Positions 3,362 through 57,625 of a stretch of 64,000 bases of DNA are shown here, in pieces (position 1 is the first letter of the stretch; the number at the start of each line of letters is the position of its first letter). The position numbers and the translations under genes were made by a program. The notes under the pieces were generated by a model, which was given only the letters and a program-made list of their open reading frames with translations, had not been told where the DNA came from and ran no database searches. Source of the DNA: a candidate division WOR-1 bacterium RIFOXYB2_FULL_42_35 (GTDB taxonomy: Bacteria > Margulisbacteria > WOR-1 > O2-12-FULL-45-9); the NCBI GenBank assembly GCA_001771545.1, contig MEUC01000002.1, positions 3,909 through 67,908 of the forward strand. The letters run 5' to 3'.

Positions 3362-3477
3362 AGACAAACCGCCTCGTTGCCCTCCCCATTAAAATTAACA
3401 ATAAACAATGACCGATTTTGGTATATAATAATTCATATCAAACACAACTGGGCTTCCCTTGTTGTAGATTATTAATT

Positions 3478-6198
3478 ATGAATACTAATTATTTAACTGC
3501 TAATTGGTTGCTAAGGTTGCTGGGCTTGTTGTTTCTTGCCGCTTCGTTCTTTTTGCCCGGCCCGGTCTCGGCGGATAGTCCCAAAGCACTCTGGGACGCA
3601 AATGGCAAAGTCATCAACAATACCCCGGGAAACACTGTCCAACAAAACCCTAAAATAATTTCTGACAGTCAGGGCAATTCTCTTGTGGTTTGGGAAGATG
3701 GACGAGCTGGCAATTATGATCTTTATGCCCAAAAGCTCGACTCCTCCGGTAAAAAACTTTGGCTGAGCAGCGGCGTAGTTGTTTGCCGCCATTTTGGCAA
3801 TCAAAATTCCGCTCAAATAATTAGCGACGGGAACGGAGGAGCCATAATTGTCTGGCAGGATTATCGGGATAAAAATGCCGACATTTTCGTTCAACATCTT
3901 GATAGCCAAGGACAAGCTGTTTGGGGGGAGGCCGGTAAAGCGGTTTGTCAGTTGGCAGAAGGACAATTTGCCCCCCAGTTAATTACTGATAATAACGGCG
4001 GCGCAATAATCACTTGGCACGATTATCGCAGTAAAATAGGCGAAGACATTTATGCTCAAAGGATTGACAGTAGCGGTCAGGCTCTTTGGCTGGAGAATGG
4101 TCAAGCTGTCTGTACTGTTAATGGCACCCAATGGTACCCAAAAATTGTTACCGACGGTTTAGATGGGGCCATAATTGTTTGGACAGATGGAAGAATTAGC
4201 CCCGCTGATAACAATATTTACGCCCAACGCCTTGATCCAAAAGGAAATTCCCTCTGGCAAAAAGACGGGGTCAGCCTCTGTCAGGCCAAACAAAACCAAG
4301 AATATCCTGCTGTCATAGCCAGTGATGGCGGAGCCATAGTTGTTTGGACCGACTCTCGTTTTAATAACGCCGATATCTTTGGTCAAAAGATTGATCTGAA
4401 TGGACAAAGTCTCTGGCAAAAAGATGGGGTAGAGGTTTGTGCTTTTAACTACGATCAAGAGCACCCTCGGTTGAGTAGCGATGGAGCTGGTGGTGCTGTG
4501 GTAGCCTGGCAAGACCAGCGCGGAACAGAAACAGCAATTTATGCTCAAAAACTCTCAGCAACCGGCCAAAATGAATGGCAGGAAGATGGTCGGCAAATTA
4601 GCCAATTTGGCAATAACCATCAAGACCTTATTATCTCTAAATTAACCGGCGAAGATTGGGTTGTTGTCTGGGAAGAGACCAGAAACAACCAAAATTCTTT
4701 GTTGGCCCAAAAAATAAATAGTTCTGGGATCCCACTCTGGTCAAGCGGGGGAATGGCCCTAACTCAACCAAATTACAGCCAAAAGACTGCTGCAGTTGCT
4801 GCCGGCTCAAAGGGAGAAATAATTGTTGCCTGGCAAGATAAGCGTTTTGGCCAAGATGACATCTATGGGCAAAAGATTTCTTCCGACGGAACCCTCTTGT
4901 GGAGCAAGGGCGGCCAGGAAATTTGCCGAACCCAGGGGGCCGTTACCCAACAGAACATCCAAACAGTACTAACACAAAACCAAGGAGTTGTCTTAGCCTT
5001 TGAAGATGCCAGAGCTGGATTTTTTAATATTTATCTGCAAAAAGTTGGAACCAAGGGAGAATTGCTTTGGGGCCAAAACGCCCTGCCTGTTGATAAGATT
5101 GCTGCCAACCAAGCAAACCCAAGCCTTGTGTCGGATGGCAAGTCAGGAATAATTGTTGTTTGGGAAGACCAACGCGACAAAAAATATTCTTCAATTCGTG
5201 CCCAACATTTTAATGCTCAAGGCGAAAAACTCTGGCCCAGCAGCTTAGTTTTGGCCAAATTCAACTCTCGACAAGTCAATCCCATTATGGTTGCCGATGA
5301 AACTGGCGGAGCAATTGTTGCCTGGCAGGAGAATCGCGATGTGCTAAGTTTGCAGGACATTTACGCCCAACGGATTTCCGCCTCGGGCAAATTACTTTGG
5401 GGAGGGAAGGGTAAAACTATTATTTCCGAGAACGGCGATCAGACAGATTTAACCATGATTCCCGATAGTCAGGGAGGCGCTATTATTGCCTGGACTGATT
5501 ATCGCCATGGCGATAGGAATCCGGATATTTATGCCCAAAGAGTTAATTCTCAAGGCAAACTTTTATGGCCGGATAAAACCGGTATTGCTGTTTGCAGTGC
5601 CCCTGATATCCAACGCAACCCCAAATTAACCGGCGACGAAGAGGGTGGCGCTATTATTGCCTGGACTGATCGTGGTGGTGGCAGTTATGATATTTACGCT
5701 CAGCGGGTTGACCAAAAAGGTAAAACACTTTGGCTAAGAGACGGGATCCCTATTAACCAACTAAGCCGCACCCAGCAAAACCCTAAATTCGGCACCGATA
5801 GCATCGTCGTCTGGGAAGATTATCGCTTTGGCAACTGGGACATTTTTGCCGGTTCAATTAACAAATCAGGCAAACTCCTTTGGGGGGAAATGGGCTCAAA
5901 TATTGCGGTCATCCCCCAAACCCAATACGCACCACAGATTGCCAAATGGAAAGATGAGCAGGTCATTGTTGTTTGGGAAGATTATCGCAGTGGTCAACAA
6001 TATGAAATTTATATTCAAAAGCTAAACAGCAGCGGCCAGCCTTTGTGGACAGAAAATGGTTTCCGAGTAAACACCAGCAATGGAGCCCGATTTCCCCAAT
6101 TAATTACCATCCCCACTAATAATACCTTTTATGTTTTCTGGGAAGATTTTACAGATGGCAACCGCGCCATCTTTGGACAGAAATTCAGCTCCAACTAA
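3478..6198 (+). CDS. Secreted tandem-repeat protein (17 repeats of about 53 aa, beta-propeller-like); function unknown
   Basis: Signal peptide MNTNYLTANWLLRLLGLLFLAASFFLPGPVSA. The body is repeats of the consensus ...LW..G..VC.......P.I..D..GGAIIVW.D.R.G..DIYAQRID..G... ORF-track start 3418 is probably too far upstream; start placed at the M of MNTNY. Confidence 0.6.
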   Translation: MNTNYLTANWLLRLLGLLFLAASFFLPGPVSADSPKALWDANGKVINNTPGNTVQQNPKIISDSQGNSLVVWEDGRAGNYDLYAQKLDSSGKKLWLSSGVVVCRHFGNQNSAQIISDGNGGAIIVWQDYRDKNADIFVQHLDSQGQAVWGEAGKAVCQLAEGQFAPQLITDNNGGAIITWHDYRSKIGEDIYAQRIDSSGQALWLENGQAVCTVNGTQWYPKIVTDGLDGAIIVWTDGRISPADNNIYAQRLDPKGNSLWQKDGVSLCQAKQNQEYPAVIASDGGAIVVWTDSRFNNADIFGQKIDLNGQSLWQKDGVEVCAFNYDQEHPRLSSDGAGGAVVAWQDQRGTETAIYAQKLSATGQNEWQEDGRQISQFGNNHQDLIISKLTGEDWVVVWEETRNNQNSLLAQKINSSGIPLWSSGGMALTQPNYSQKTAAVAAGSKGEIIVAWQDKRFGQDDIYGQKISSDGTLLWSKGGQEICRTQGAVTQQNIQTVLTQNQGVVLAFEDARAGFFNIYLQKVGTKGELLWGQNALPVDKIAANQANPSLVSDGKSGIIVVWEDQRDKKYSSIRAQHFNAQGEKLWPSSLVLAKFNSRQVNPIMVADETGGAIVAWQENRDVLSLQDIYAQRISASGKLLWGGKGKTIISENGDQTDLTMIPDSQGGAIIAWTDYRHGDRNPDIYAQRVNSQGKLLWPDKTGIAVCSAPDIQRNPKLTGDEEGGAIIAWTDRGGGSYDIYAQRVDQKGKTLWLRDGIPINQLSRTQQNPKFGTDSIVVWEDYRFGNWDIFAGSINKSGKLLWGEMGSNIAVIPQTQYAPQIAKWKDEQVIVVWEDYRSGQQYEIYIQKLNSSGQPLWTENGFRVNTSNGARFPQLITIPTNNTFYVFWEDFTDGNRAIFGQKFSSN

Positions 6199-8001: not shown

Positions 8002-8894
8002 GCCCGCAACTCGGAACTCGGAACCCGAAATTAATAGATAAGTTCATCAACTACCTCAAGACCGAACGCAATTACTCACCACATACAACCAGCAACTACC
8101 AACGCGACCTAATCTTTCTCATGGATCTTTTAAAGGGGAAGAAATTTGATCGCTCGGCTGCACGGGAATACTTGATTGCCTTGGAACAAAAACATTTTTC
8201 CCGTCGTTCAGTGGCTAGAAAGCTTTCTGCGGCACGCTCATTTTTCCGTTATCTCTTGAGAGAGAAACTGGTTGAGCAGAATCCGTTTGCCAACTTAGTA
8301 ACCCCTAAGCTGCCTAGAAAACTCCCCAACTTCCTCTATCCGGAAGAACTGGACCGCTTACTGAAAGGTCCTGATTTAAAGGCTCCCCTTGGTCTACGCG
8401 ACAAAGCTATCTTGGAAATGATTTATGGCACAGGGCTACGGGTAGCGGAACTTATTATGATTAACAAGAACGATGTTGATTTTGAGGAAGGAGAAGTAAA
8501 GGTCTTGGGTAAAGGTTCTAAAGAACGGATTGTTTTGTTTGGTTCTCATGCTAAAGGCGCCCTATTAACATATCTAAAAGACGCCAGGGATAAACTCAGA
8601 AGCAATAAAGAAATTGCGGCTTTTTTTGTTAATCGTCGCGGCGGCCGTTTAACCGCTCGATCGATCGAAAGGATGCTAGTATATTATAGTAAAAAGGCAG
8701 GAATAACCAAGAAGGTAACTCCCCACACTCTAAGACACTCCTTTGCTACCCATCTTTTAGCTGGCGGCGCTGACCTTCGAATGGTTCAGGAATTGCTTGG
8801 GCATGTTTCACTTTCAACCACTCAAGTCTACACCCATATTACCAAAGAACGCCTCAAGGAAGTCTACGATTCTGCTCATCCACGATCGAGTTAG
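7998..8894 (+). CDS. xerC: Tyrosine site-specific recombinase XerC/XerD
   Basis: C-terminal catalytic region RHSFATHLLAGGADLRMVQELLGHVSLSTTQVYTH. The N-terminus carries an extra MSPQLGTRNPK extension encoded by a heptamer repeat. Confidence 0.88.
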   Translation: MSPQLGTRNPKLIDKFINYLKTERNYSPHTTSNYQRDLIFLMDLLKGKKFDRSAAREYLIALEQKHFSRRSVARKLSAARSFFRYLLREKLVEQNPFANLVTPKLPRKLPNFLYPEELDRLLKGPDLKAPLGLRDKAILEMIYGTGLRVAELIMINKNDVDFEEGEVKVLGKGSKERIVLFGSHAKGALLTYLKDARDKLRSNKEIAAFFVNRRGGRLTARSIERMLVYYSKKAGITKKVTPHTLRHSFATHLLAGGADLRMVQELLGHVSLSTTQVYTHITKERLKEVYDSAHPRSS

Positions 8895-19569: not shown

Positions 19570-20430
19570 ATGAAAACAGCCTTTGTGTTTCCCGGCCAGG
19601 GCTCGCAAACGGTCGGGATGGGTAAAGATCTGGCTGAATCTCTGCTAGATCAAGCTAACCAAATATTGGGTTTTGATCTCAAAAAGCTCTGTTTTGAAGG
19701 TCCGGAAGAAGAACTTAAGAAGACCGAGATCACTCAGCCTGCTATTCTAACTGTCAGCGTGGCTGCCTTCCAACAACTCGCAACCCGCAACCCGCAACCC
19801 GCAACAGTAGCTGGCCACAGCTTGGGAGAATACTCTGCACTAGTAGCAGCTGGAGCTATTAAGTTTGGAGATGCGGTTAAGATCGTTAACCTCCGCGGTA
19901 AGTTTATGCAAGAAGCTGTGCCAATTGGCCAAGGAGCCATGGCCGCTATTATTGGTGGGGAACGAGCTAAAATTGAAGAGGTTTGCGCTGGGATCGAGGG
20001 TGTCTGGCCAGCCAACTTTAACTCTCCTGGTCAAATCGTTATTTCCGGCCAAAAAGAGGCTGTTGAAAAGGCTTCTGCTGCTTGCAAGGATGCCGGAGCA
20101 AAAAGAGCCATCCCCTTGCCTGTTTCCGCTCCTTTTCATTGCCCACTCATGCAGCCTGCTGCTGATAAATTAAAAATGGAACTTGATAAAATTGAAGTCA
20201 AAGACGCAACTATTCCTGTTATTGCCAACGTTACAGCTGCTGCGGTAACCAGCGCTGCTGAAATTAGAGACTTATTAGTCAAACAAGTCACCTCCCCTGT
20301 TTTGTGGGAGGATTCTGTTAAGAAAATGATTGCTGATGGAGTGAGTTCGTTTGTTGAAGTTGGGCCTGGCAAGGTTTTGTCTGGGCTAATTAAAAAGATT
20401 GATAGAAACGTAGAAACTAGTAATGCGTAA
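19570..20430 (+). CDS. fabD: Malonyl-CoA:ACP transacylase
   Basis: MKTAFVFPGQGSQTVGMGKDL...AGHSLGEYSALV. Contains an in-frame (CAAC[CT]CG)4 repeat at 19774-19801. Confidence 0.93.
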   Translation: MKTAFVFPGQGSQTVGMGKDLAESLLDQANQILGFDLKKLCFEGPEEELKKTEITQPAILTVSVAAFQQLATRNPQPATVAGHSLGEYSALVAAGAIKFGDAVKIVNLRGKFMQEAVPIGQGAMAAIIGGERAKIEEVCAGIEGVWPANFNSPGQIVISGQKEAVEKASAACKDAGAKRAIPLPVSAPFHCPLMQPAADKLKMELDKIEVKDATIPVIANVTAAAVTSAAEIRDLLVKQVTSPVLWEDSVKKMIADGVSSFVEVGPGKVLSGLIKKIDRNVETSNA

Positions 20431-22548: not shown

Positions 22549-23786
22549 GCAAAAGAGTTGTTGTAACAGGCTTAGGAGTTGTTTCCCCAATTGGAATTGG
22601 CAAAGACGATTTTTGGTCGGCTTTAAGCCAGGGCAAAAACGGGATTGACAAGATCACTCTTTTTGATACCACTAATTTCCCAACTAGAATTGCTGGTGAG
22701 GTCAAAGATTTTAACCCTGGGAACTATCTTGACAAAAAAGAAGCCCGTCGCTTAGTTCGTTTCATTCAGTTTGCCATTGCCGCCTCACAACTAGCCCTCA
22801 CAGACTCCGGTTTGACTATTTCTGACAACAACGCCAATGATGTTGGGGTTGTGATTGGTTCAGGGATCGGTGGAATTGATATTTTGGAAAGCGCTGCCTA
22901 TACTTTGAGAGATAAGGGCCCGGACAAACTTAGTCCTTTTACTGTCCCATTTATGATTGCTGATATGGCCGCAGGCTATGTCTCGATCAGTGTTGGCGCT
23001 AAAGGCCCGAATTCTTGTGTTGTCACTGCCTGTGCCTCAGGGACACATTCAATTGGCGAAGCTTATAAAATCATTCAGCGTGGCGCAGCCAAAGCCATGT
23101 TAGCTGGTGGATCCGAAGCATGCATTACCCCGTTAGGAGTAGCAAGTTTTTGCGCAGCTCGCGCCCTTTCAACTCGCAACGATGACCCTCAACACGCCAG
23201 TCGGCCATTTGAGGCCAATCGCGAAGGCTTTGTGATAGGCGAAGGTGCCGGGATTTTGCTTTTAGAAGGTTTGGAAGAAGCCCTTGCTCGCAACGCCAAA
23301 ATCTATGCCGAAGTTATCGGCTATGGCATGAGCGGTGATGCCAATCATATTACTGCCCCCGCCCCCGGCGGAGAAGGCGCTGTTCGCGCAATGCAAGCTG
23401 CCCTTAAAGATGCCAATATCAGCCCGGAGCAAGTTGACTATGTTAACGCTCACGGGACTTCAACCAAACTAAACGACAAGTTTGAAACCATGGCCATAAA
23501 AACTTTCTTTGGTGAACACGCCAAAAAATTAGCTGTTAGCTCAAACAAGTCTATGACTGGTCACATGTTGGGCGCAACAGGAGCAGTTGAGTTTATTGCT
23601 TCTATTCTTTCAATTGTCAACGACACGGCCCCACCAACAATTAACTATGAAGTCCCTGATCCAGAGTGTGATCTCGATTACGTTCCCAACCAAGCCAGGA
23701 AAATGCCGATTAATATTGCTATGTCCAATTCTTTTGGCTTTGGTGGCCATAACGCTATTTTGCTGGCCAAAAAGTATTCTCCTTAA
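22545..23786 (+). CDS. fabF: 3-oxoacyl-ACP synthase II
   Basis: [17 protein letters not shown]...; KAS II motifs; 413 aa. Confidence 0.93.
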
Positions 23787-23795
23787 GAGAGAATA

Positions 23796-26700
23796 ATGAA
23801 AGATCAAAGATCAAAGATCAAAGATCAAAACAAATCCAAAGGTAAAAGCTCCGAAATCCAAACAAATCTAATAATCAAAGGTTCAAGGATTTTGATCTTT
23901 GGGCTTGGATCTTGGAGCTTGTTTTGCGCTTTGATCTTGGGACTTTGGATTTCTTGCCCCTCATTGGCCTACGCTCAAAGCACGATCTATCCTAAATTCG
24001 ACATTTCCGGTTATAAGAAGTGGGAATATAAACGGGTAGATGTTGATCCTTCAAGCAACTATTTCAGCGGCTTAACCCAGCTGGGTGGTTTTTATCAAAC
24101 TTACAGCGGAGGACCATGGCAAGAAAGGCTTAAGCTTAAAATTATCGGCGAGCTCTCAAAAGATCTTTCTGTTACGTACAATATCAATCAACAGCCCGAA
24201 ACCCCCGACCAATTTGACGTACAAGTCAAATATAAAGACACAGAACTAACCTTCGGTGATTTTTCTGCAACTTTTTCTGGCAACGAGTTTGCTTCCGTTT
24301 CTAAAACATTGAATGGGGTAAAGTTGACCTCTAAAAATTCCTGGCACGACGTTCTGGTGGTGCCCTCAACAAAACTTAAAAGCCAAACCCAAGCCTTAAC
24401 CGCCCAAAAAGGCAATAATACCAAGGGCCCCTATAGTCTTGGTCGCGGCTCAATCGTTGAAGACTCTGAAAAGGTTGAACTCAACAACGTCCCATTAAAG
24501 CGCAATGTTGACTATACCATTAACTACTTTGAAGGCAAGATTACCTTCAATAAAATATTAACCACTCTCGATGAGTTTAAATATAGCTATGAGTACACCA
24601 ACATGCTGGATCTCTTTTTCCCTTCGCTCTCAAAAAGAGACTTTTTTGGTTTTCAATCAAGATTTACAATTGATCCCAAAGAAGTTGGCAAGCCACCGCT
24701 CAAAAAGCAGTTGGTTGTTTTATCCGATCAACAGCAATTTCCTTCTTCGGGCAGCCTTGAGGCCGGTTTAACGGAAGCAGAAAGCAGTGGCCGCTATCTA
24801 ATCAACAATTACCCCCTCGTCGATTTCAGCGAAAAAATAACTTTTCTTGGTGCGGAGCTGCAAAAAAATACTCATTATATTGTTCGTTACGAGACAGGAG
24901 AAATAAAGCTTTTAACCAATACCTTGCCAACCGCAGCCGACCCCCTGACTGTTCAGTACAAATACTATAAAGTTTCCGCGGAAACAGACGCAATCTTAGG
25001 CATTGGGGGGCGCGGTCCTTATCAACTGAAAAATAATGGGCTTGTCTCCGAGAGTGAACGAGTGGAGGTTAATGGCCAGCTCAATGTCCGTAATTTAGAT
25101 TATTCTATTGATTACACCACCGGCCAAATTGTTTTTGGTATTCCGGTTAGTGAAACTTCACAGATTAAAGTTTCATACAAATACAAAGCCCTGGAAACCC
25201 CCGTTGAAACAAAGTCTAAATTTCCAACCGAACTAACAGTTGGCGCAACTTATCTGCGAGAATCAGCCAAAAAAACCAGCGGAACCAACATTGTTACAGT
25301 AATTGAAAGTATCACCGGACAAACAATTATTAACAAGAATTACCTAGCCTATCTAGCCAACCGTCCTTTGGCTGACAGCAGCGAAGCAACCACAACCCTA
25401 ATTGTTAAGGTTGATGGGCAAACCCTGACCCGGGAGGTTGATTATACTGTTCCCACAACCTACGTTGATCCCAGCACCGGCTACGCAGTTGTTACCCCGG
25501 AAGCAACCCTAGCCTACATCAATGATCGCGCTGATACTACTAATGGTTATGGCACCGGTACAATCTTATTTTTAAACCCGAGCACTGTTCTGGCTACCAG
25601 CTCAGTTACCGTAACCTATACGTATCAAAAAAACATTGTTGGCAAATTTTCCGGTGTGGGCAACGAAACCACTGGCCCATATTATTTAAGAAACGTTAGA
25701 AATGTTGTCCCCGGATCGGAAACTCTTCAGGTTTGGGAAAGGGGCTCCTCGACCATTACCACCTACACCCGCAACTCAAGCTTTGAACCAGACGCTGGCA
25801 GCACCGGCTATTCAATCAATTATGACGCTGACAACCCTTACATAACTTTTAACAATGGACTTTCCAGCACCAAGAACTTTCAGTTGATTTATCAATATGT
25901 TCCACCCTTGGGAGCAACAAATAACGCTGATTTAGCCCAATCCATTCTCGGTTTTGATACCAGTTTTAAAATCGGCAACCTCTTTAAAATAGACAGCGCT
26001 TATGCCCGCAGTGAAACTGACCAGGTTTTTATGGCTGAAGCAACCAGCGAAAGTTTTACCGGCAACGGAACCAAAACGTATTTACTACACTCTAGCGCGA
26101 CTCTGATCGAAAACAGTGAAAAAGTTTCGGTCAATAATAATACCCTTAATAAAGACTTGGACTATTTTGTTAGCTATACTAGCCCTGGCAAGGTTGTTTT
26201 CTATTATATTACCCCAACAACTGCCGATGCTATTGTTGTTGACTATAAATACCAATCCCTTTCCGGTATAGCCTCCGGGCAAACCAGTAAAGTTGACAGC
26301 GCTTATAGCCTTGGCGCAGAAACCAAAGTTTTTGGAGACACCTTGACCCTCTCTGGGGTGACCAAAAAGATTGGTCAAGATTTTACCCCCATGGGCGGCA
26401 CATCAATTGGTTTGGGCTCGAGTTATAATGCCTATGATCTTAAATTCCAACAAAAAAACTTCCACTCATTAACTGCTAATTATTCCTACAAAGAAAACAC
26501 CAATCCTTTAAGCACTTACCGGGATCGTTTTTTAAAAAGTTATGACAACTCAATAAACCTTGGGATTGACCCTAACAAGTTAGTAAAAATAGCTCTTTAC
26601 TATCGAGACTACCGGACAATTGACGACCTTTTGCCTGCTAGCACCGCCCACGCCAGTGACAACCAACAACAATCTTATTCCCTTAGTCTTGTGCCAAAAA

Positions 26701-28016
26701 CCTTGCAGCATCAAGAGTTGTCTTTTACCCAACAATATAGCGCCAGCAGAACCTTCTCGCAACAAGACACCTTAAGAGACAGTCGTAATTTTTCCGAAAG
26801 CACTATTGACTATCTTACTGCCAGCGGGGCACTTAAATTTACCAAGAGGTTTTCCGCTAATTATAACTATCAACAAAGTAATCCAAAAACAATCTCGCTT
26901 AAGTCCAGCACCACCGAAGCCACCCATGAAGCTGTTTACTCGCAAAAACATGTTGTCGATACAACTTATGCCTTCTCTGCCGACTTAACTTTCCCTCAAA
27001 TAAGTAGCTGGGTCGCCCGCGTCAGTGTCATTGATCATAAGGACTATAATCTTTACACTGCCTTTTCTACAACCAATGAAATTGTCAGCACCAGAAACGA
27101 AAGCTATAACACAACCTTTGTTCCTTTTCAACAACTGAGCACTTCACTCGACCACAATCGCTCAGAGCAAACCAGTGTTGTGGTGGGCGGGGCTAACCCT
27201 AAAACAGAAAGGACTACAACTAAAACAGCCTATAGTCCTTTTAGTTGGCTTTCCGGAGGCTGGACATATTCACAGAGTGAGTCAATCCCTCAAACAGGCA
27301 TCGTTTATAAAACCAGCGGTAAAGGCAATACTTATACTGCTATCTACAAACCAATTTCTTTAACTTATTTTAGCCTTGTCTCCACTTTCTCAATAACCGA
27401 CAACCGGCAGGTAGCTCCTTCTGGAACAACTCCCGAGGTAACAACCGACACAAACACTTTTTCGCAAAATTATGTTTTAGGCTTCACCCCTCATAGTTTA
27501 TTACCGTTTAAAGTTGGTCTAACTCTGGAAAATTATCGTAATACCAACGATCATCCCAGCGTTGCCAGTAGAATTGATACGAAAACTGAAAATCAGACCG
27601 TCAGCTTGGGGTTAAAAACGACCCCCTTCACAAGTTTCACTTATAGCACAAGCTATGATCATAAAATTACTCGAGTTATAAGGGATTTGACTGTTGCTCC
27701 TCAAAACAAATTAAAAAGCACCTTTAATAATGCCTTGTCTTATCAAGTCAATAAAATGAGCACTCTTAATTACAGCCGACAGGATGAAAACAATGGCGGA
27801 GAAATTCAAGGGGGGAAAGTAGCCGCTTTAAACATTAATAAAACTACTCAAGCCCTGAGCCTAAGCATTATCGTGCCTATAGATAACGTTGTCATAACTA
27901 GCTTTGTTTTTACAACTTCTTTAAAAACCGTGGACTATCGCAATCTGGACAAGCCAAACAAAGCCGATGATTTTATTGCTTCGTTACTAACGTTTGAAGG
28001 GACCATAAATTTCTAG
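23796..28016 (+). CDS. Giant (1406 aa) secreted beta-rich protein, probable outer-membrane protein, with an extended N-terminal leader shared with the downstream subtilase
   Basis: N-terminus MKDQRSKIKDQNKSKGKSS...ILIFGLGSWSLFCALILGLWISCPSLAYA|QS (long signal peptide). Internal modules of about 100 aa recur, of the form ..V.VNG..L.....DY.I.Y..G.I.F. C-terminal strand ...LLTFEGTINF ends in Phe, as in OM beta-barrels. Confidence 0.6.
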   Translation: MKDQRSKIKDQNKSKGKSSEIQTNLIIKGSRILIFGLGSWSLFCALILGLWISCPSLAYAQSTIYPKFDISGYKKWEYKRVDVDPSSNYFSGLTQLGGFYQTYSGGPWQERLKLKIIGELSKDLSVTYNINQQPETPDQFDVQVKYKDTELTFGDFSATFSGNEFASVSKTLNGVKLTSKNSWHDVLVVPSTKLKSQTQALTAQKGNNTKGPYSLGRGSIVEDSEKVELNNVPLKRNVDYTINYFEGKITFNKILTTLDEFKYSYEYTNMLDLFFPSLSKRDFFGFQSRFTIDPKEVGKPPLKKQLVVLSDQQQFPSSGSLEAGLTEAESSGRYLINNYPLVDFSEKITFLGAELQKNTHYIVRYETGEIKLLTNTLPTAADPLTVQYKYYKVSAETDAILGIGGRGPYQLKNNGLVSESERVEVNGQLNVRNLDYSIDYTTGQIVFGIPVSETSQIKVSYKYKALETPVETKSKFPTELTVGATYLRESAKKTSGTNIVTVIESITGQTIINKNYLAYLANRPLADSSEATTTLIVKVDGQTLTREVDYTVPTTYVDPSTGYAVVTPEATLAYINDRADTTNGYGTGTILFLNPSTVLATSSVTVTYTYQKNIVGKFSGVGNETTGPYYLRNVRNVVPGSETLQVWERGSSTITTYTRNSSFEPDAGSTGYSINYDADNPYITFNNGLSSTKNFQLIYQYVPPLGATNNADLAQSILGFDTSFKIGNLFKIDSAYARSETDQVFMAEATSESFTGNGTKTYLLHSSATLIENSEKVSVNNNTLNKDLDYFVSYTSPGKVVFYYITPTTADAIVVDYKYQSLSGIASGQTSKVDSAYSLGAETKVFGDTLTLSGVTKKIGQDFTPMGGTSIGLGSSYNAYDLKFQQKNFHSLTANYSYKENTNPLSTYRDRFLKSYDNSINLGIDPNKLVKIALYYRDYRTIDDLLPASTAHASDNQQQSYSLSLVPKTLQHQELSFTQQYSASRTFSQQDTLRDSRNFSESTIDYLTASGALKFTKRFSANYNYQQSNPKTISLKSSTTEATHEAVYSQKHVVDTTYAFSADLTFPQISSWVARVSVIDHKDYNLYTAFSTTNEIVSTRNESYNTTFVPFQQLSTSLDHNRSEQTSVVVGGANPKTERTTTKTAYSPFSWLSGGWTYSQSESIPQTGIVYKTSGKGNTYTAIYKPISLTYFSLVSTFSITDNRQVAPSGTTPEVTTDTNTFSQNYVLGFTPHSLLPFKVGLTLENYRNTNDHPSVASRIDTKTENQTVSLGLKTTPFTSFTYSTSYDHKITRVIRDLTVAPQNKLKSTFNNALSYQVNKMSTLNYSRQDENNGGEIQGGKVAALNINKTTQALSLSIIVPIDNVVITSFVFTTSLKTVDYRNLDKPNKADDFIASLLTFEGTINF
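23801..23828. repeat. (AGATCAA)x4 heptanucleotide tandem repeat at the 5' end of the giant-protein CDS (four GATC sites)
   Basis: aagatcaaagatcaaagatcaaagatcaaaac encodes KDQRSKIKDQN. Confidence 0.8.
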
Positions 28017-28020
28017 GGGT

Positions 28021-30300
28021 TTAAAGGGCGATTAACTTGCCCTTGGCAATTACTTTGTTTCCTGATATTACTTGAAAAATATATACACCGTTGGGTACAC
28101 TTGTCCCAAACAGATCAATTCCATTCCAACTGGGATCATTACTGCCGGCCTTGGCTCCGTTTTCACCAGCAATATAATTCTGCTGCCAGATTAGCGTCCC
28201 GGTTAAATCAAAAAGATAAATACTGGTGTTGAAGTTTCCTTGCAGACTATAATTAAAAGTCACCGTGGAGGCAGAACTGCGCACAAAAGGATTGGGTAAA
28301 GCATAGGCCATTGGCAAACCAGTTTGGGTTTCCGCCGCCTTGGCGGGTTCCGAACTGTTTTGCAGATTAAGTAAAATTGTTTCCAGGCTCGTTGCCCCTG
28401 TTTGATCATAAGCTGTTAATTTTAAAGTGTATTGGCCGGATAATCCGGCTGTTTCCCAGGTTCCCAAAACGCCAGCTTCTACTGTGCTATAAGATTCCTC
28501 ACCATAAGCCGGTAATGGCCGCAATCTTATTTTGGTAAAAATTGTTGGGGAAGCGCCCTGGCCATATTCCAGATAATATTTATCGAAATTAAAATCTGTA
28601 GCTGTTCCGGAAATAGTAACATCTCCGGTAACGGTGGCTCCCGATGTAGGGGTAGCAATCAGGGCTTGGGGCGGCGTGTTATCAATAACTATCGCGATTG
28701 AGGCTTCATCACTAACTCCCGCAACTGTAGAATAGACATTAACTGCAACAGTATAGTTGCCGTCTGTTACAGCTGTTGTATCCCAAGTTGCCAACAAATT
28801 AGCGGTTGCGGCGGTTGTGCTGCTGCCAATACTGGCCACAACACTGCCAGCCTGCAAAGCTAGAACTTCATAACTGCTAAAAGTTTGACCGGCAGCTGTC
28901 CCATAAATTTCTACGCTCCCTTTGATGTATGAATTGGACTCTGGCGAGGCAATTGCTGCGGTTATTGCTGCCAAAGCCTTACTAACATTAATCCTGCCAC
29001 TCCCTAAATCACCTAGGTACGTTGGGTTTTGCGCATCAATATTATCAGCAGAGGTTGTCACTGCATTGGTTATGTCTGCAACAGTCATAGCCGGATATTG
29101 GGCTTTCATTAAAGCAGCTAAGCCCGCCACAAAAGGAGCAGCAAAAGAGGTTCCATTGTTCCCCAAATAATAACTGCCATCCATGGTAGTCGTCATTATG
29201 CTGCTGCCGGGAGCACAAACACTGATCCAACTGCCATAATTAGAAAAGCTTGATTTAATATCGCTACTATCAACAGACGCAATTGCCAGCACTGTATCGT
29301 AACCGGCAGGATAGCGCAGAGAGGTAACGTTGTCATTGCCGGCAGCTGCTACCAGAACGGCCCCATTGTTATAAGCATCGGAACAAGTACTCTGCAGGCC
29401 AGAGGGAGAAGAATTAAAACCAAAACTCATGTTCATCACATCAACATTACGTGAGCTAGCATAAGCAATAGCGGCTTTTATATTAGTATTTGTTCCTGTT
29501 CCACTACTGTCTAAAACTTTAAGCGGCAAGATCTTTGCTTGCCAATCAACACCAGCCACTCCCTTACCATTATTGGTCACTGCGCCAAGGACACCAGAAA
29601 CTTTGGTGCCATGACCAAAATCATCTTCCGGGTCATCATCATTATTAACAAAGTCCCAACCATGCGAGTCAATCTTGGCAGCTAAATCTTCATGGTTAGA
29701 ATCAATGCCAGAATCCAAAACTGCAATAACCACACTGGAAGAACCCGTGGTCTGATCCCAGCCGGACGGGGCCGATATATTTGTTAATCCATATTGACTA
29801 CTGTAATAAGTGTCATTGGGAATAGTCGCATACGCTTGGGCAATCTCGTCTGGAGAAGCTGAGACAACATCAGGATTATTTTGGTATTCCGCTGCTACAG
29901 TTTCAACATTTTTATCTTCAGGAAAGTAAATAACATAGTAATCTTTGAGATGGGTCCAATCTGGTCGGTTTTCTAAAGCCTTGCTATAAAGCTGTTTAAT
30001 TTTATAAACCCCGGTTTTGTAGCTTAAGGCTTGAACCGAATTAGACAGGAACTGGGCTTTATCAACAGAAAAGGCTGTTGCCCCTTGAGGTAAAACAATT
30101 TGTTCCGGTTTAAACTGGACCAAGATTTGACCGGGGGCATAGTCAGCCAGAGATAAAGATGACAAAGAAACCCAAAACCCAAAGATCAAAATCCCCAGCA
30201 AGCTCCAAATCCCAAATCCCAAGTTCCAAATTGCTTTTGATTTTGAAATTGGAGCCTGAAGCCCATTTTGATCTTTGATCTTTGATCTTTGGTCTTCCAT
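28021..30300 (-). CDS. Subtilisin-like serine protease (peptidase S8) with a C-terminal FlgD-Ig / T9SS-type sorting-domain-like tail and the shared extended N-terminal leader
   Basis: Catalytic triad blocks VAVLDSGID (Asp), HGTKVSGV (His), GTSFAAPFVAGLAAL (Ser). C-terminus LPNPF...IYLFDLTGTLIW...PNGVYIFQVISGNKVIAKGKLIAL. N-terminus MEDQRSKIKDQN...NLGFGIWSLLGILIFGFWVSLSSLSLA|D. Confidence 0.85.
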   Translation of the reverse strand: MEDQRSKIKDQNGLQAPISKSKAIWNLGFGIWSLLGILIFGFWVSLSSLSLADYAPGQILVQFKPEQIVLPQGATAFSVDKAQFLSNSVQALSYKTGVYKIKQLYSKALENRPDWTHLKDYYVIYFPEDKNVETVAAEYQNNPDVVSASPDEIAQAYATIPNDTYYSSQYGLTNISAPSGWDQTTGSSSVVIAVLDSGIDSNHEDLAAKIDSHGWDFVNNDDDPEDDFGHGTKVSGVLGAVTNNGKGVAGVDWQAKILPLKVLDSSGTGTNTNIKAAIAYASSRNVDVMNMSFGFNSSPSGLQSTCSDAYNNGAVLVAAAGNDNVTSLRYPAGYDTVLAIASVDSSDIKSSFSNYGSWISVCAPGSSIMTTTMDGSYYLGNNGTSFAAPFVAGLAALMKAQYPAMTVADITNAVTTSADNIDAQNPTYLGDLGSGRINVSKALAAITAAIASPESNSYIKGSVEIYGTAAGQTFSSYEVLALQAGSVVASIGSSTTAATANLLATWDTTAVTDGNYTVAVNVYSTVAGVSDEASIAIVIDNTPPQALIATPTSGATVTGDVTISGTATDFNFDKYYLEYGQGASPTIFTKIRLRPLPAYGEESYSTVEAGVLGTWETAGLSGQYTLKLTAYDQTGATSLETILLNLQNSSEPAKAAETQTGLPMAYALPNPFVRSSASTVTFNYSLQGNFNTSIYLFDLTGTLIWQQNYIAGENGAKAGSNDPSWNGIDLFGTSVPNGVYIFQVISGNKVIAKGKLIAL
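30268..30296. repeat. (AGATCAA)x3-4 heptanucleotide repeat at the 5' end of the subtilase CDS (minus strand)
   Basis: Plus strand tttgatctttgatctttgatctttggtc. Confidence 0.8.
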
Positions 30301-30344
30301 TCAGGTTGAAGTATACCATGATCTAGGAGTATAATAAATTCACC

Positions 30345-31538
30345 ATGAAATTTAATAAGCGAGCTAAAAAAGTTTTCTCCCCCGTTCTGGGCAAGTATTT
30401 TGGTGATTTTGAGATCGACAAAGCTAAAGGTTGTTATCTTTATAGTACCGACGGTAAAAAACACTTGGACATGTCTGCCGGTATTGCTGTATGCGGCACT
30501 GGTCACTGTCACCCACAGGTAGTCGCTGCTGCAACCAAGCAACTCAACAAACTAATCCACGTCTGTATTGGGGTAGCCTGTTATGAACCATACGTTAAGT
30601 TGGCAGAAATGCTGCAAAAAGTTGTCCCGATAAAAAACGCCCAATTTTTCTTTTGCCAAAGTGGCTCGGAAGCAACTGAAGCGGCAATAAAACTGGCAAA
30701 GTATTCAACAAAAAAGCCCGGCATTATTGCGCTAGAAGGCGGCTTTCATGGTCGAACCTATGGGGCCCTTTCGATGACCAGTTCAAAGATGAAATATCGC
30801 GAAGGCTATGAGCCGCTAGTGCCAGAAATTTATCTTGCCAAGCCAGACCTGGCAGAAATTGAAACACTTATAAAGAGTAAACAAATCGCGGCAGTTATAA
30901 CCGAGTTAATTCTCGGAGAAGGCGGCTATGCCGTACGGCCCAAAGAATTTATTACCGGCTTGCGCAAGCTTTGCGATAAATACAATGTGCTCTTGATTGT
31001 TGATGAAGTACAAAGCGGCATTGCTCGAACCGGCAAATGGTTTTTATCTGAACACTATGGCCTTCAACCAGATATTGTTTGTATGGCCAAAGGCCTGGCT
31101 TCCGGCTTTCCTTTGGGCGGCATTGCCGCTTCTGCTAAATTGATGGCCAAATGGTCACCCGGCTCGCATGGTGGAACCTTTGGCGGCAACCCGGTTTGTT
31201 GCGCAGCAGCAATTGCCACGCTAGAAGTAATTAAAAAGGAAAAACTCTTGCAAAATGCCACTAAAACGGGCGCATACCTAACGACTCAATTGAAAAAAAT
31301 GCAAAAGAAATATCCGTTGATAAAAGATGTACGAGGTTTCGGCTTAATGATCGGGGTAGACATTGGTGATTGGGATACTGTTAGCAAAATTATGACTTAT
31401 TGTTTAAAAAATAAAGTAGTAATCATCCCAACTGGCGGCGGCGGCACAGCTCTTCGCTTTATACCTCCGTTGACCATAAAGAAGAAAGAAATTGACCAAG
31501 CCTTAAAGGTTTTTGAGCAAGCACTGAAAAGTTTATAG
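30345..31538 (+). CDS. Class-III pyridoxal-phosphate-dependent aminotransferase (acetylornithine/GABA aminotransferase family)
   Basis: 397 aa; GHCHP, DEVQSG and PLP-lysine region motifs typical of AT-III. Confidence 0.85.
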   Translation: MKFNKRAKKVFSPVLGKYFGDFEIDKAKGCYLYSTDGKKHLDMSAGIAVCGTGHCHPQVVAAATKQLNKLIHVCIGVACYEPYVKLAEMLQKVVPIKNAQFFFCQSGSEATEAAIKLAKYSTKKPGIIALEGGFHGRTYGALSMTSSKMKYREGYEPLVPEIYLAKPDLAEIETLIKSKQIAAVITELILGEGGYAVRPKEFITGLRKLCDKYNVLLIVDEVQSGIARTGKWFLSEHYGLQPDIVCMAKGLASGFPLGGIAASAKLMAKWSPGSHGGTFGGNPVCCAAAIATLEVIKKEKLLQNATKTGAYLTTQLKKMQKKYPLIKDVRGFGLMIGVDIGDWDTVSKIMTYCLKNKVVIIPTGGGGTALRFIPPLTIKKKEIDQALKVFEQALKSL

Positions 31539-51191: not shown

Positions 51192-52991
51192 ATGAAAAAA
51201 CTATTTAAATGGGTTGGAATCATTGTTGGTGCTTTGCTCGCTATATTAATAGTAGGCGCTATCGCCCTCCCCCTTCTCCTTCCTTTAGACAAGATCAAGG
51301 ACATGGCTACTGCCAAGATCTCGGAGGCCATCAATCGAGAGGTCAAGATTGAAAAGGTTTCTTTCAACCTCTTCTCTGGGATACAGCTCGAAAAGATATC
51401 TATCGCTAACCGCAAGGGATTCTCTGACAAGCCCCTTATCTCTGCCGATGGAATTGAGCTGCGTTATGCTTTTTGGCCAATTTTTAAGCGCCAATTACTT
51501 ATTAAAGAGGTGCGATTGGTTAAACCTGAAATATTAATAGAAAAAACCGCTGGCGGAACATTTAACTGCTCTGATATGACTAACAAAAAGGCGAAGGGCA
51601 AAGGCAGAGGCCAAGGTGATACCGAGGCTAAGGAAGAAAAACAGAAACAATCTTTTTCGTTGGTTGTTGATTCTTTTGCCGTTAAAGATGGTTTGATTAC
51701 CTATATTGACCAGGGAACAGGCGCTCAAAGCGAAATTAAGAATGCCAATTTAAGTCTTTCTGGTTTTACCCTAGCTTTAATCCGACCCATTGATTTGAAC
51801 TTTTCTGCGACAGCGACATATCAGAAGAAAAACATTCCTTTGTCTCTGCGGGGAAAGATTGGGGTTGATTTAAATAAGCAGGCAATTGATTTTCCTGCCT
51901 TAAGCCTAGAAATTACTGGAGAAAAGGCTATAATTTCGGCCAAAGTCAGTCAATGGAAAACCGCTCCGCATGTTGATTTTTCTATCTCTTCTGATAAATT
52001 ATCAATAGATCCTTTCCTGGCAATTTTTGCCGGCGGCGAAAAGAAGGCTAAGCCCCAAAAAGGGGAATTATCCAAAAAGGTTGATCAGGCAACTAAATCA
52101 ATTTCCCGCCAATACAGCGTCAACGGAAGAATTAGCATTAATAAGCTTAGTCTCTTAGATTTTGAAATGGACAAGTTTGACTGTGCCGTCACCCTAGCCA
52201 ATAAGCAAGTTACTCTGGATATAAAGGAAATTGCTTTATATGAAGGGACACTTTCTGGCCAAGCAAAAATTAATCTGGCCACCTCAGGCCTGGCTTACAA
52301 CATTAATAATCTAAAGCTAAAAGACTTCAACGTAACCCCATTTACCAACGATTTGGTCGAAACATTTTTAACCAAGCTAAAAGACTACCAAGATCTTAAG
52401 GATAAGGTTTATGGCAAGCTAAACCTTTCGTTGACTCTAAATGGTCACGGGGTAGAGCCGGAAGATATTCTAACCAATGCGGTTGGCCAAGGTTCTTTTG
52501 CTTTAACTGACGGCGAGATAAAAAGGGTTAAAACCCTGGCCGAAGTTGGCAAGTTTATTAAGTCCAATGCTCTGCAGGATGATATTAAGTTTAAAGACCT
52601 GGGCGCTTCTTTTGCGATCAAGAACAGGGTTTTGTCTACAAAGGATTTAAGGCTTGATAGCAAAAACATTAAAGTCGGTTTTTCTGGCGGAGCAGATTTG
52701 GGCCAGCTCGTTTGGGTTAGCGGCAATCGTTTAACCCTCAAACTTTCTCCGGAACTAACTCAAGGCCTGCCCAAAGAACTTGAGCTGTTACGAAATGATC
52801 AAGGCTGGCTGGAAGCAACTTTTGAGCTGACCGGATCGTTAAAACTGCCCATTCCTAAGCCGATTTTTGACAAACCAATTGAAAAAGTTATTGGGAATAT
52901 TAAACTAAAAATTGATGCTGGTAAGGTTGAAATCGAGAAAAAAGTTGTTGATGAGGCCAAGAAACAGTTGCAGGATTTTCTTAAGTTTTAA
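51192..52991 (+). CDS. asmA: AsmA-family outer-membrane assembly protein
   Basis: N-terminal TM anchor plus the characteristic AsmA N-domain (...KVSFNLFSGIQLEKISIAN...); 599 aa. Confidence 0.7.
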   Translation: MKKLFKWVGIIVGALLAILIVGAIALPLLLPLDKIKDMATAKISEAINREVKIEKVSFNLFSGIQLEKISIANRKGFSDKPLISADGIELRYAFWPIFKRQLLIKEVRLVKPEILIEKTAGGTFNCSDMTNKKAKGKGRGQGDTEAKEEKQKQSFSLVVDSFAVKDGLITYIDQGTGAQSEIKNANLSLSGFTLALIRPIDLNFSATATYQKKNIPLSLRGKIGVDLNKQAIDFPALSLEITGEKAIISAKVSQWKTAPHVDFSISSDKLSIDPFLAIFAGGEKKAKPQKGELSKKVDQATKSISRQYSVNGRISINKLSLLDFEMDKFDCAVTLANKQVTLDIKEIALYEGTLSGQAKINLATSGLAYNINNLKLKDFNVTPFTNDLVETFLTKLKDYQDLKDKVYGKLNLSLTLNGHGVEPEDILTNAVGQGSFALTDGEIKRVKTLAEVGKFIKSNALQDDIKFKDLGASFAIKNRVLSTKDLRLDSKNIKVGFSGGADLGQLVWVSGNRLTLKLSPELTQGLPKELELLRNDQGWLEATFELTGSLKLPIPKPIFDKPIEKVIGNIKLKIDAGKVEIEKKVVDEAKKQLQDFLKF

Positions 52992-56916: not shown

Positions 56917-57625
56917 GTTTTATTTGCTCCTCTGTTTGGCCAAACTTTCTGAGCCTTTGTTGATAAGCTTCTATGGCTTCTTTCAATTGTTCCCGTCTAA
57001 AGTCCGGCCAAAGAACAGGGGTAACATAAATTTCTGCGTAAGCAATTTGCCAAAGCAGAAAATTGGAAATTCTCATTTCGTTAGCTGTGCGAATTAATAG
57101 GTCGGGATCTGGCATTCCTTTGGTGTAAAGATGTTTGCCAATTGTTTCTTCGTCGACATTGTTAATTGTTAATTGTTCCTTGATCATTGATTGCATTGCA
57201 TCCACCAGCTCCGCCCGACCACCATAATTAGCCATTATGTTTAAAACAACCCCGGCATTGTGCTTGGTTTTCTCGGCGGCTCCTTGCATCTTCTGCTGTA
57301 ATTCTGCGGAAAACTCTTGGGTGCGGCCCAAAAAATTGATTTTAACCTGGTTGGCCATTAGCTCTTCCAGTTCGCTCTCAATTTTTTCGGCAAAGAGCGA
57401 CATTAAAAACTCTACTTCTTCTTTTGGTCGCTGCCAATTTTCTGTGGAAAAAGCATAAACAGTTAAGTATTTGATCCCAAACTCAGCACAGGCCCTGAGA
57501 ATTTCTCTGAGAGCTTCGGTCCCTTCGCGGTGACCGGCAAGCCGCGGCAACCCGCGCTCTTTGGCCCAACGGCCATTGCCATCCATTATCGCGGCAATAT
57601 GTTGAGGAATGTTTTTAGAGTCCAT
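56906..57625 (-). CDS. uppS: Undecaprenyl pyrophosphate synthase
   Basis: HIAAIMDGNGRWA... Confidence 0.92.
   Translation of the reverse strand: MDSKNIPQHIAAIMDGNGRWAKERGLPRLAGHREGTEALREILRACAEFGIKYLTVYAFSTENWQRPKEEVEFLMSLFAEKIESELEELMANQVKINFLGRTQEFSAELQQKMQGAAEKTKHNAGVVLNIMANYGGRAELVDAMQSMIKEQLTINNVDEETIGKHLYTKGMPDPDLLIRTANEMRISNFLLWQIAYAEIYVTPVLWPDFRREQLKEAIEAYQQRLRKFGQTEEQIKHAA

Follow-up and report, generated by a model that had tools for sequence, protein, structure and literature searches.

The window analysed here is a 64,000-nt stretch of the candidate division WOR-1 bacterium RIFOXYB2_FULL_42_35 (GenBank assembly GCA_001771545.1, contig MEUC01000002.1, positions 3,909 to 67,908), in which two convergent genes, coding for a giant outer-membrane protein (hereafter the giant) and for a secreted S8 subtilase, begin with almost the same peptide. 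The initial annotation had read this common start, in which M[KE]DQRSKIKDQN precedes a basic linker and then a hydrophobic core, as a possible dedicated export signal. The translations of both open reading frames (ORFs) bear out the resemblance, and our results place its origin in the DNA: the shared leader is probably a translated repeat which gives both proteins a long but otherwise ordinary signal peptide of the general secretory (Sec) pathway, and not a conserved peptide signal. The conserved feature of the locus is the gene pair itself, a predicted giant outer-membrane barrel and a protease whose tail is in the style of type IX secretion (T9SS), and not the leader. The genes and leaders are arranged as follows, a vertical bar marking the predicted cut and n- and h-region standing for the polar amino-terminal and the hydrophobic part of a signal peptide:

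23796..28016, plus strand: gene of the giant outer-membrane protein, 1406 aa, with a predicted Sec signal peptide, repeated small beta domains and a very large predicted C-terminal beta-barrel
23796..23975, plus strand: giant leader, 60 codons, putative long Sec-type signal peptide with a 31-aa basic n-region of net charge +6, an h-region and AYA|Q
28017..28020, no strand: gap of 4 nt separating the convergent stop codons, in which no terminator-like site was found
28021..30300, minus strand: gene of the secreted S8 subtilase, 759 aa, with a predicted signal peptide, a fervidolysin-like propeptide, the S8 domain, immunoglobulin-like (Ig-like) domains and a T9SS-type C-terminal domain (CTD)
30145..30300, minus strand: subtilase leader, 52 codons, putative long Sec-type signal peptide with an n-region of ~22 aa and net charge +2, an h-region and SLA|D

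Inspection of the sequence agrees with the earlier description of both ORFs, of their coordinates and convergence, and of tail-to-tail genes with 4 nt between the stops and no terminator-like site. The giant begins with MKDQRSKIKDQNKSK... (its start also written MKDQRSKIKDQN...) and the subtilase with MEDQRSKIKDQNGLQAPISKSK... (also written MEDQRSKIKDQN...).

At the DNA level, the common peptide corresponds to a tandem array of a heptanucleotide that begins at codon 2 in both genes and is accompanied by a partly complementary T-rich arm. The components, the arrays being those reported by Tandem Repeats Finder (TRF), are the following:

23799..23829, plus strand: heptanucleotide array (AAAGATC) x4.4, 100% matches, translated KDQRSKIKDQ
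23830..23885, plus strand: degenerate A-rich heptamer-like spacer (CAAAGGT/AAATCCA...), encoding the n-region part NKSKGKSSEIQTNLIIKGS, on the loop side of the hairpin
23886..23960, plus strand: T-rich degenerate complementary heptamers (GATTTTG ATCTTTG GGCTTGG ATCTTGG AGCTTGT ...), encoding the hydrophobic core RILIFGLGSWSLFCALILGLWIS and pairing with the A-rich array to form a long hairpin
30168..30231, minus strand: T-rich arm composed of (GATTTGG) x3.9, TTTTGATCTTTGGG and (TGGGTTT) x2.3, encoding NLGFGIWSLLGILIFGFWV and pairing with the array
30267..30296, minus strand: heptanucleotide array (AAAGATC) x4.3, 95% matches, first unit AAGACC, translated EDQRSKIKDQ

TRF also gives a period-32 row at 23805-23880, covering the A-rich spacer of the giant leader, and two rows in the T-rich arm of the subtilase (30205-30231 and 30168-30183). 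In the sense orientation (AAAGATC)n is open in all three frames, each of which gives the same cyclic heptapeptide KDQRSKI, while a perfect antisense (GATCTTT)n contains TGA in every frame. In both genes the T-rich arm is in part the reverse complement of the A-rich array, and all TGA triplets within these arms lie out of frame, as expected for a complementary array shaped by the need to stay translatable. GATC is also denser in the two leaders than anywhere else in the window, with 8 and 5 sites per 200 nt where the mean is 0.78, because the repeat unit itself contains GATC. Dam/GATC avoidance was considered and rejected, GATC not being depleted in the window (observed/expected 1.52).

The resemblance between the two genes is not limited to the array. 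The 14-mer AAAGATCAAAGATC occurs in the 64 kb only at these two sites and was matched by 0 of 100 shuffles. Beyond the arrays the leaders align collinearly, with a local score of 50 against 18.2 +/- 2.8 for shuffled sequences (z = 11.4), whereas unrelated heptamer-derived sequences used as control reach only 15-34. A score so far above both the shuffles and the unrelated heptamer sequences indicates that one hairpin-forming cassette of ~150 nt is present twice, the leaders being its two copies, inverted and 6.5 kb apart. Both 5' regions can indeed fold into a long imperfect hairpin, with RNA folding energies of -57.6 kcal/mol for the giant (z = -2.84) and -64.9 kcal/mol for the subtilase (z = -3.73, equalled by 0 of 200 shuffles).

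The encoded peptides have the layout of Sec signal peptides. Counted from the sequence, both n-regions are positively charged and unusually long; the h-region that follows is uninterrupted, with a maximal 15-aa hydropathy of 2.05 and 2.07 in the two leaders, around residues ~27-48, and small residues stand at -3 and -1 in both, in agreement with the AxA rule. The AxA-type cleavage sites already proposed for these proteins were recovered, the likely positions being AYA|Q after residue 60 in the giant and SLA|D after residue 52 in the subtilase, in alignment with the sites of the orthologues. A lipoprotein signal at the Cys of WISC was considered and discarded, since this residue lacks a lipobox and is not conserved among orthologues.

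Comparison with orthologues places the difference in the signal-peptide-coding segment. The giant has more than 170 homologues, nearly all from Margulisbacteria/Saganbacteria and mostly of 1340-1380 aa. In 120 orthologues the protein begins with an ordinary Sec signal peptide of ~20-30 aa, after which comes the conserved YPQLDISGFKKWEYK; the leader motif occurs in none of the 120, and the predicted cleavage site of the giant aligns with their ALA|QQ..YPQLD. Likewise, the 47 closest orthologues of the subtilase have short leaders ending in A[HY]A|DY[AV]PG, aligned with the SLA|D site, and the motif is found in 0 of 47. The closest relative (P0001, 77% identity) begins with MKKLWFARKQLASIFALAASILIIFSGYSPVQA|AKSTLYPKFD. 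When the DNA of the window is aligned with that of this relative, the end of fabF, a GAGAG ribosome-binding site, the ATGAA and the mature N-terminus are conserved, and between these flanks the signal-peptide-coding segment has been replaced, that of the window being ~78 nt longer. The start codon of the giant lies 9 nt past the fabF stop, a position conserved in three related loci (L144, L145 and L146), and that of the subtilase, within a conserved divergent intergenic region of 44 nt, matches the start of the relative.

Other heptamer units are found at the same place in related species. The giant of L145 (1598-1691) has a signal-peptide array of (TTACTGG)4 plus (TTTCTGG)n, ~13 units in all, which encodes LLISGYWLLVTGYWFLISGFWFLVTGFWFLIS. 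The giant of L146 (4130-4215) is built like that of the window, with (TGGTTAT)n, an upstream A-rich partner and a polar extension of 45 aa. In the subtilase of L146 and L147, (ATTTTTT)5 in the signal-peptide region encodes VIFYFLFFIFYF (L146, 10394-10435).

The search for other carriers of the leader gave no further protein family. A profile of the two leaders run against a word index of 5.8 billion clusters returned one candidate and nothing at E <= 10, the query being short for such an index. Four matches came from an exhaustive hmmsearch run over 1.84 billion representatives: the same giant gene in two calls that are truncated or frameshifted, one spurious translated repeat and one translated non-coding element (P0244, see below). 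Within the window, the other exported proteins (3418..6198 and the AsmA-like 51192..52991) have ordinary leaders without the motif. In the window and the databases scanned, only these two genes thus carry the motif, the DNA repeat accounts for it, and orthologues do not keep it; this is the outcome that the initial annotation had named as refuting its reading. Since the motif would be cleaved off with the signal peptide, it would be absent from the mature proteins and would define no cargo class.

We also scanned metagenome contigs, in a collection that does not hold the window's own contig, for an ATG followed by the array, and obtained seven loci, none of them related. Only one of the seven continues into a signal peptide: L131 (Ga0172379_10005431, minus strand, ~2169-2192), from an unrelated organism, has an ATG and (AAAGATC)3 leading into the plausible signal peptide MKDQRSKIKIATIIPILFFLLALLSPSAAARA..., and thereby adds a separate instance in which the same array is translated at the N-terminus of an exported protein.

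Heptamer arrays are not restricted to the two leaders. The 64-kb window contains six strong arrays of period 7, against 0-1 for each of the periods 5, 6 and 8-11. Period 7 is the sole enriched tandem period here and likewise in L145 and L146, the enrichment having been measured in the window and a few related loci. Several arrays lie in frame within genes:

8008-8024: XerC-like recombinase, AACTCGG x2.4, in frame
19774-19805, plus strand: FabD (gene at 19570..20430), (CAACCCG) x4.6, in frame and encoding QQLATRNPQPAT just before the active-site GHSLGE
57157-57189: UppS, CATTGTT/ATTGTTA x3-4.7, in frame
62137-62161: MnmG, AACTCGC x3.6, in frame
11678, 20461, 21248, 49479 and 51043: short intergenic 7-nt arrays

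In L146 (27-61), the same FabD loop, with equal length, comes from a different array (ACTAAAG/AGCAAAG) encoding DRLKTKEQRAKIV. Arrays recur at this orthologous FabD position without insertion or deletion.

Farther away, a scan of genome contigs for (GATCAAA)>=3 found at least 119 loci (L001-L119) in many phyla, none related to the window. Among the matches listed, the hosts include Pyrinomonadaceae/Blastocatellaceae (Acidobacteriota), Bacteroidales, Patescibacteria, Cloacimonadota and others, and the loci are mostly intergenic, often chained with other or inverted arrays. These arrays often stand directly before start codons, for example before fusA in L040 and also in L079, and the metagenome-assembled genomes (MAGs) CAYMJH01, CAYUGW01 and JAFGTR01 have many such loci each. 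A non-coding relative of the architecture is offered by L148 (JGI 3300044720), where a 136-nt hairpin with 60-nt arms, (AAGATCC)4(AAGCTCC)3 - loop - (GGAGCTT)3, occupies the region between yicC and gmk in two copies that are 98% identical (3003-3138 and 3222-3357). P0244, the 126-aa hypothetical protein annotated on these copies, is almost certainly spurious, its ORF lying over a repeat element.

We propose the following pathway for the leaders. The genome, like those of its relatives and of several other phyla, accumulates short tandem arrays of 7-nt units, presumably by slippage or template switching. A cassette of ~150 nt, made of (AAAGATC)4, degenerate CAAAGNT-like units and a partly complementary T-rich array, occupies the signal-peptide-coding 5' end of both genes, its two copies being of common descent through duplication or gene conversion. 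Translation would then run from the ancestral start codons through the cassette. From the A-rich arm would come the long polar n-region rich in Lys and Arg, since every frame of (AAAGATC)n reads KDQRSKI, and the T-rich arm would give the h-region, its degeneracy being imposed because a perfect (GATCTTT)n carries TGA in all frames. The peptides encoded by complementary strands tend to be opposite in hydropathy, and a polar segment followed by a hydrophobic one is therefore the natural product of an inverted repeat placed at a 5' end. The signal-peptidase-I site of AxA type would have been kept from the ancestor, and the proteins would leave by general Sec export with their 60-aa and 52-aa signal peptides cut at AYA|Q and SLA|D, the motif being lost with them. 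The leader arrays would be a DNA repeat typical of the lineage, which the genes tolerate, or have perhaps co-opted, in the role of a long Sec signal peptide.

Several points weigh against this explanation. The lag-7 periodicity that speaks for it, present in the signal peptides of 9 of the 120 giant orthologues, against 1.3% of internal segments, is a modest enrichment. That leaders of 52-60 aa function and are cleaved as such is a prediction from their sequence. The hairpins of -58 and -65 kcal/mol lie over the start-codon region and could hamper translation, a hint at a possible function of the structure itself. The same cassette on both genes of the pair, when the other arrays of the window have different units, looks non-random and could reflect co-regulation instead of a neutral spread. 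Finally, the uniqueness of the leader rests on the window and on database scans, and further copies elsewhere in the genome are conceivable.

A rival idea is that of a cis-regulatory hairpin, which would jointly control the translation or transcription of both genes as an RNA or DNA cruciform structure, or as a GATC target for a protein or for methylation, would make the peptide a by-product, and would be compatible with a translated repeat. The stability of both 5' folds relative to shuffles, the presence of the cassette on both genes and the GATC clusters speak for it, as does the proposal that in Beggiatoaceae heptamers just upstream of start codons are sites of a post-transcriptional regulator (PMC4679880). 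However, the structure is not conserved at the locus: orthologous 5' regions fold no more stably than shuffles (z = 0.03 for the closest relative, -0.87 for another), relatives carry unrelated units or T-rich arrays lacking the A-rich partner, and an E-value scan of 23500-30600 against Rfam gave zero matches to a known RNA family. We consider such a regulatory role unlikely.

The arrays could also lie in 5' untranslated DNA, with ORFs extended too far upstream and true starts located downstream (a TTG in RIL, or ATT/TTG before the h-region), in which case the cell would not produce the charged 11-mer at all. In other organisms heptamer arrays are mostly intergenic, two gene callers disagree on the array-encoded segment of the subtilase in L146 and L147, and the subtilase ATG has no obvious Shine-Dalgarno sequence. 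Yet the ATG of the giant is where all orthologues start, behind the conserved GAGAG and 9 nt past the fabF stop, and that of the subtilase is the start of the relative, in the conserved 44-nt intergenic region. Moreover, the downstream starts would leave signal peptides devoid of a positively charged n-region, and the frame is open through the entire cassette despite the stop-prone T-rich arm. Over-extension of the ORFs is therefore quite improbable.

Since 7 is not divisible by 3, a tract placed just past the start codons of surface or secreted proteins recalls a phase-variation switch, in which slipped-strand mispairing changes the copy number of the heptamer and toggles both proteins, both being in frame now; phase variation by heptanucleotide simple sequence repeats (SSRs) is documented in Haemophilus influenzae (PMC8262952, PMC12721329). 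With only ~4 units the expected slippage rate is low, and no copy-number polymorphism was seen: both 5' regions are 100% identical across 16 independently assembled contigs (NCBI, JGI, ENA and Logan), found by look-ups anchored on the flanking FabF, aminotransferase and subtilase, a comparison made between consensus assemblies. Similar arrays also lie within the essential FabD, MnmG and UppS, where switching off would be lethal, so that arrays in this genome are not in themselves switches. We regard phase variation as very unlikely.

The dedicated extended signal peptide suggested at the outset, a lineage-specific sorting signal read by a dedicated factor and defining a cargo set, like the extended signal peptide region (ESPR), YSIRK or KxYKxGKxW, finds support in a leader common to two secreted proteins of a conserved pair, with ESPR-like length and basic n-regions, but it is hardly credible for a motif whose identity lies in the DNA as a 7-nt array, which is limited to two genes and absent from all orthologues, from other families and from the other exported proteins of the window, and which gave zero matches to the leader models in Pfam (ESPR PF13018, YSIRK and KxYKxGKxW; E <= 0.1) and in NCBIfam (E <= 1).

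Margulisbacteria are the sister lineage of Cyanobacteria. Heptanucleotide repeats are recorded in Cyanobacteria, where inverted heptamer arrays are able to form stem-loops (PMC4692102). These short tandemly repeated repetitive (STRR) arrays of Calothrix and Nostoc, with GGGAATC/GGGGAYT repeats, resemble the present arrays by their 7-nt units, by the over-representation of period 7, by their variability between lineages and by the occurrence of array pairs that are sometimes inverted and capable of forming a stem-loop (PMC4692102). The described STRR cases are essentially intergenic, whereas here arrays are apparently translated in frame in signal peptides and housekeeping enzymes, and an inverted pair supplies both the n-region and the h-region of a signal peptide. 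The TAACTGA repeats of Beggiatoaceae, Cyanobacteria and Bacteroidetes are likewise heptamers of 2-6 copies, adjoining start codons at a distance of a few nt, which are rare within ORFs and then translated mostly at protein termini (MacGregor 2015, PMC4679880). They share the strand asymmetry, one orientation being rich in stops and the other translatable as a 7-aa repeat, but differ by their unit, their lack of a predicted structure and their position, mostly upstream of the start, and no coding of signal peptides has been reported for them.

Neisseria opa genes carry CTCTT repeats in the region coding for the signal peptide. Such contingency SSRs of leader or promoter regions, of which the 7-bp repeats of H. 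influenzae hmw are another example (PMC8262952), resemble the present arrays in a unit length that 3 does not divide and in their place at the 5' end of surface-protein genes; the contingency tracts are long and hypervariable among isolates, in contrast with the ~4 units of the window, which are the same in 16 contigs. ESPR (of autotransporters and two-partner secretion proteins), YSIRK and KxYKxGKxW also place a long N-terminal extension before a normal Sec signal peptide, but they are conserved as peptides across many proteins and species, and not as a DNA repeat in two genes of one species. Thus heptanucleotide SSR arrays are already known, and what is unusual here is an inverted array pair translated into two long Sec signal peptides. 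For annotation, this means that a striking leader motif shared by two proteins can be a translated simple sequence repeat, and a check for a 7-aa (21-nt) period exposes such cases before a sorting signal is made of them. For evolution, it suggests that repeat DNA may replace the whole of a signal peptide between an unchanged start codon and cleavage site, with other heptamer units in related species, and that the order of an export signal, polar and then hydrophobic, can arise from an inverted repeat. The locus would be a clean natural example of the tolerance of signal peptides and of surface loops, such as the array-encoded loop adjoining the FabD active site.

The mature proteins contain the domains that follow:

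24414..24674, plus strand: local match of the giant (aa 207-293) to the SprA/Sov model, TIGR04189 positions 591-674 of 2319, E = 1.5e-7
25929..28013, plus strand: predicted C-terminal barrel of the giant, ~30 consecutive long beta-strands and an invariant final Phe (DSSP on residues 506-1200 of the AF2 model, high pLDDT)
28030..28296, minus strand: C-terminal Ig-like sorting-type domain of the subtilase, aa 669-757, of the T9SS type-A CTD / FlgD-Ig class
29026..29739, minus strand: S8 peptidase catalytic domain, aa 188-425 (PF00082, E = 1.3e-53, 182.6 bits)

The S8 protease looks active from its sequence, with the Asp-His-Ser catalytic motifs VLDSG at 194, HGT at 230 and GTS at 383, and it also matches the Pfam models PF22148 and PF17957. 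Its tail, kept in all the subtilase orthologues compared, had been described as a FlgD-Ig/T9SS-CTD-like domain, and this holds in part of the sorting-domain models and in the fold. TIGR04183 scores 28.7 bits with the whole protein and 35.5 bits with the last 109 aa, above its cut-off of 23, while Pfam PF18962 stays below its own (13.7 bits for a cut-off of 27). The AF2 model of the tail (pLDDT 96.1) is closest to the CTDs of PorZ and PorU and to FlgD-Ig: the top Foldseek match is PorZ 5m11 (E = 2.4e-4, TM-score by query, TMq, 0.59), and PorU 6za2 reaches TMq 0.67. FlgD-Ig and Fn3-like domains score similarly to PorZ and PorU, so the fold of the tail is not exclusive to T9SS.

The giant is predicted, from its AF2 model, to be a very large outer-membrane beta-barrel. 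Its C-terminus, ...TFEGTINF, ends with F1406, invariant in 80 orthologues, and this, with the barrel of the model, agrees with the OMP-like (outer-membrane-protein-like) terminal Phe strand initially noticed. A comparable architecture is the 30-strand barrel of Deinococcus SlpA (8AE1, 8AGD), another very large outer-membrane beta-barrel of about the same strand number, which gives the best TM-score among the Foldseek matches of the giant (0.29 by query, 0.34 by target). Unlike SlpA, the giant shows no S-layer homology (SLH) domain or coiled-coil in a Pfam scan, and carries small repeated beta domains, some N-terminal to the barrel and others inside it. Deinococcus-Thermus, the source of SlpA, is classed, like the Cyanobacteria/Margulisbacteria group, among Terrabacteria (PMC10629564).

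The best Foldseek matches of the giant model are structures of SprA, the T9SS translocon. In sequence, the giant scores 29 bits with TIGR04189 for a cut-off of 200, and six orthologues score 36-55 bits, always over the same local region of ~90 aa. This region, aa 207-293, is a repeated small beta domain that also resembles DUF2460 and phage-tail-like proteins (PF09343). The small domain repeats at aa ~210, ~410, ~630 and ~770 with the motif GPY.L....IV..SE.V..NG..L.R..DY.IDY..G.I.F, and has weak matches to DUF2460 / phage distal-tail protein (TIGR02217), to a phage tail-tube model and to SprA ~591-680. It may be a shared insertion domain. A profile of the orthologues compared with the sequences of the PDB did not find SprA. 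A specific remote relationship between the giant and SprA is possible.

The pair as a whole recalls SprA/Sov and type-A CTD cargo of T9SS (6H3I, 8GL6; TIGR04189, TIGR04183), with an S8 protease that has a Sec signal and a CTD superposing on PorZ and PorU, next to a giant single-chain barrel of which one region matches the SprA model locally. T9SS is considered to be limited to the Fibrobacteres-Chlorobi-Bacteroidetes (FCB) group (PMC12398890, PMC10202324). No other T9SS machinery (PorV, the PorU sortase, GldK/L/M/N, SprE/T) was seen among the window ORFs examined, the other exported proteins of the window have no CTD, and we found no literature link between Margulisbacteria and T9SS. From the pair and from the hairpins, two independent readings can be drawn which we consider speculative and rather doubtful. 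The first is that in Margulisbacteria/Saganbacteria, and thus outside the FCB superphylum, the pair forms a minimal module for type-IX-like export, in which the giant may be a shortened, highly diverged SprA-type translocon and the S8 protease its dedicated cargo or processing partner; if true, such a translocon/cargo pair would extend the ancestry of T9SS-type export past FCB into Cyanobacteria-related lineages. The second is that inverted heptamer-array hairpins are a ready-made source of signal peptides, the A-rich arm giving a basic n-region and its complement a hydrophobic h-region, which may be why they have been captured repeatedly at the 5' ends of these genes for exported proteins.

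The gene pair is well kept around the changing leaders. In relatives, the order is fabD-fabG-acpP-fabK-fabF > giant > < S8 > aminotransferase > SpoU, with stops that touch or overlap (by 4 nt in L145 and L146). This convergent synteny across the phylum suggests, from gene order, that giant and subtilase work together at the outer membrane, and the conserved pair is consistent with the protease/outer-membrane partnership first put forward. The giant gene is always 3' of the fab operon, its start codon overlapping the fabF stop or lying <=13 nt from it (window and L144-L147), which suggests that this major outer-membrane protein is co-transcribed and translationally coupled with the fatty-acid synthesis genes. 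The same proteins are exactly matched in WOR-1 MAGs from the Rifle aquifer, for example in GCA_001772415.1 (contig METW01000001.1). In a near-identical contig (L124, Logan SRR3989308), where the locus is short of its 5' end, the giant is called with 1404 aa and not 1406. The AsmA/YhdP-like protein encoded at 51192-52991 on the plus strand is consistent with a diderm envelope.

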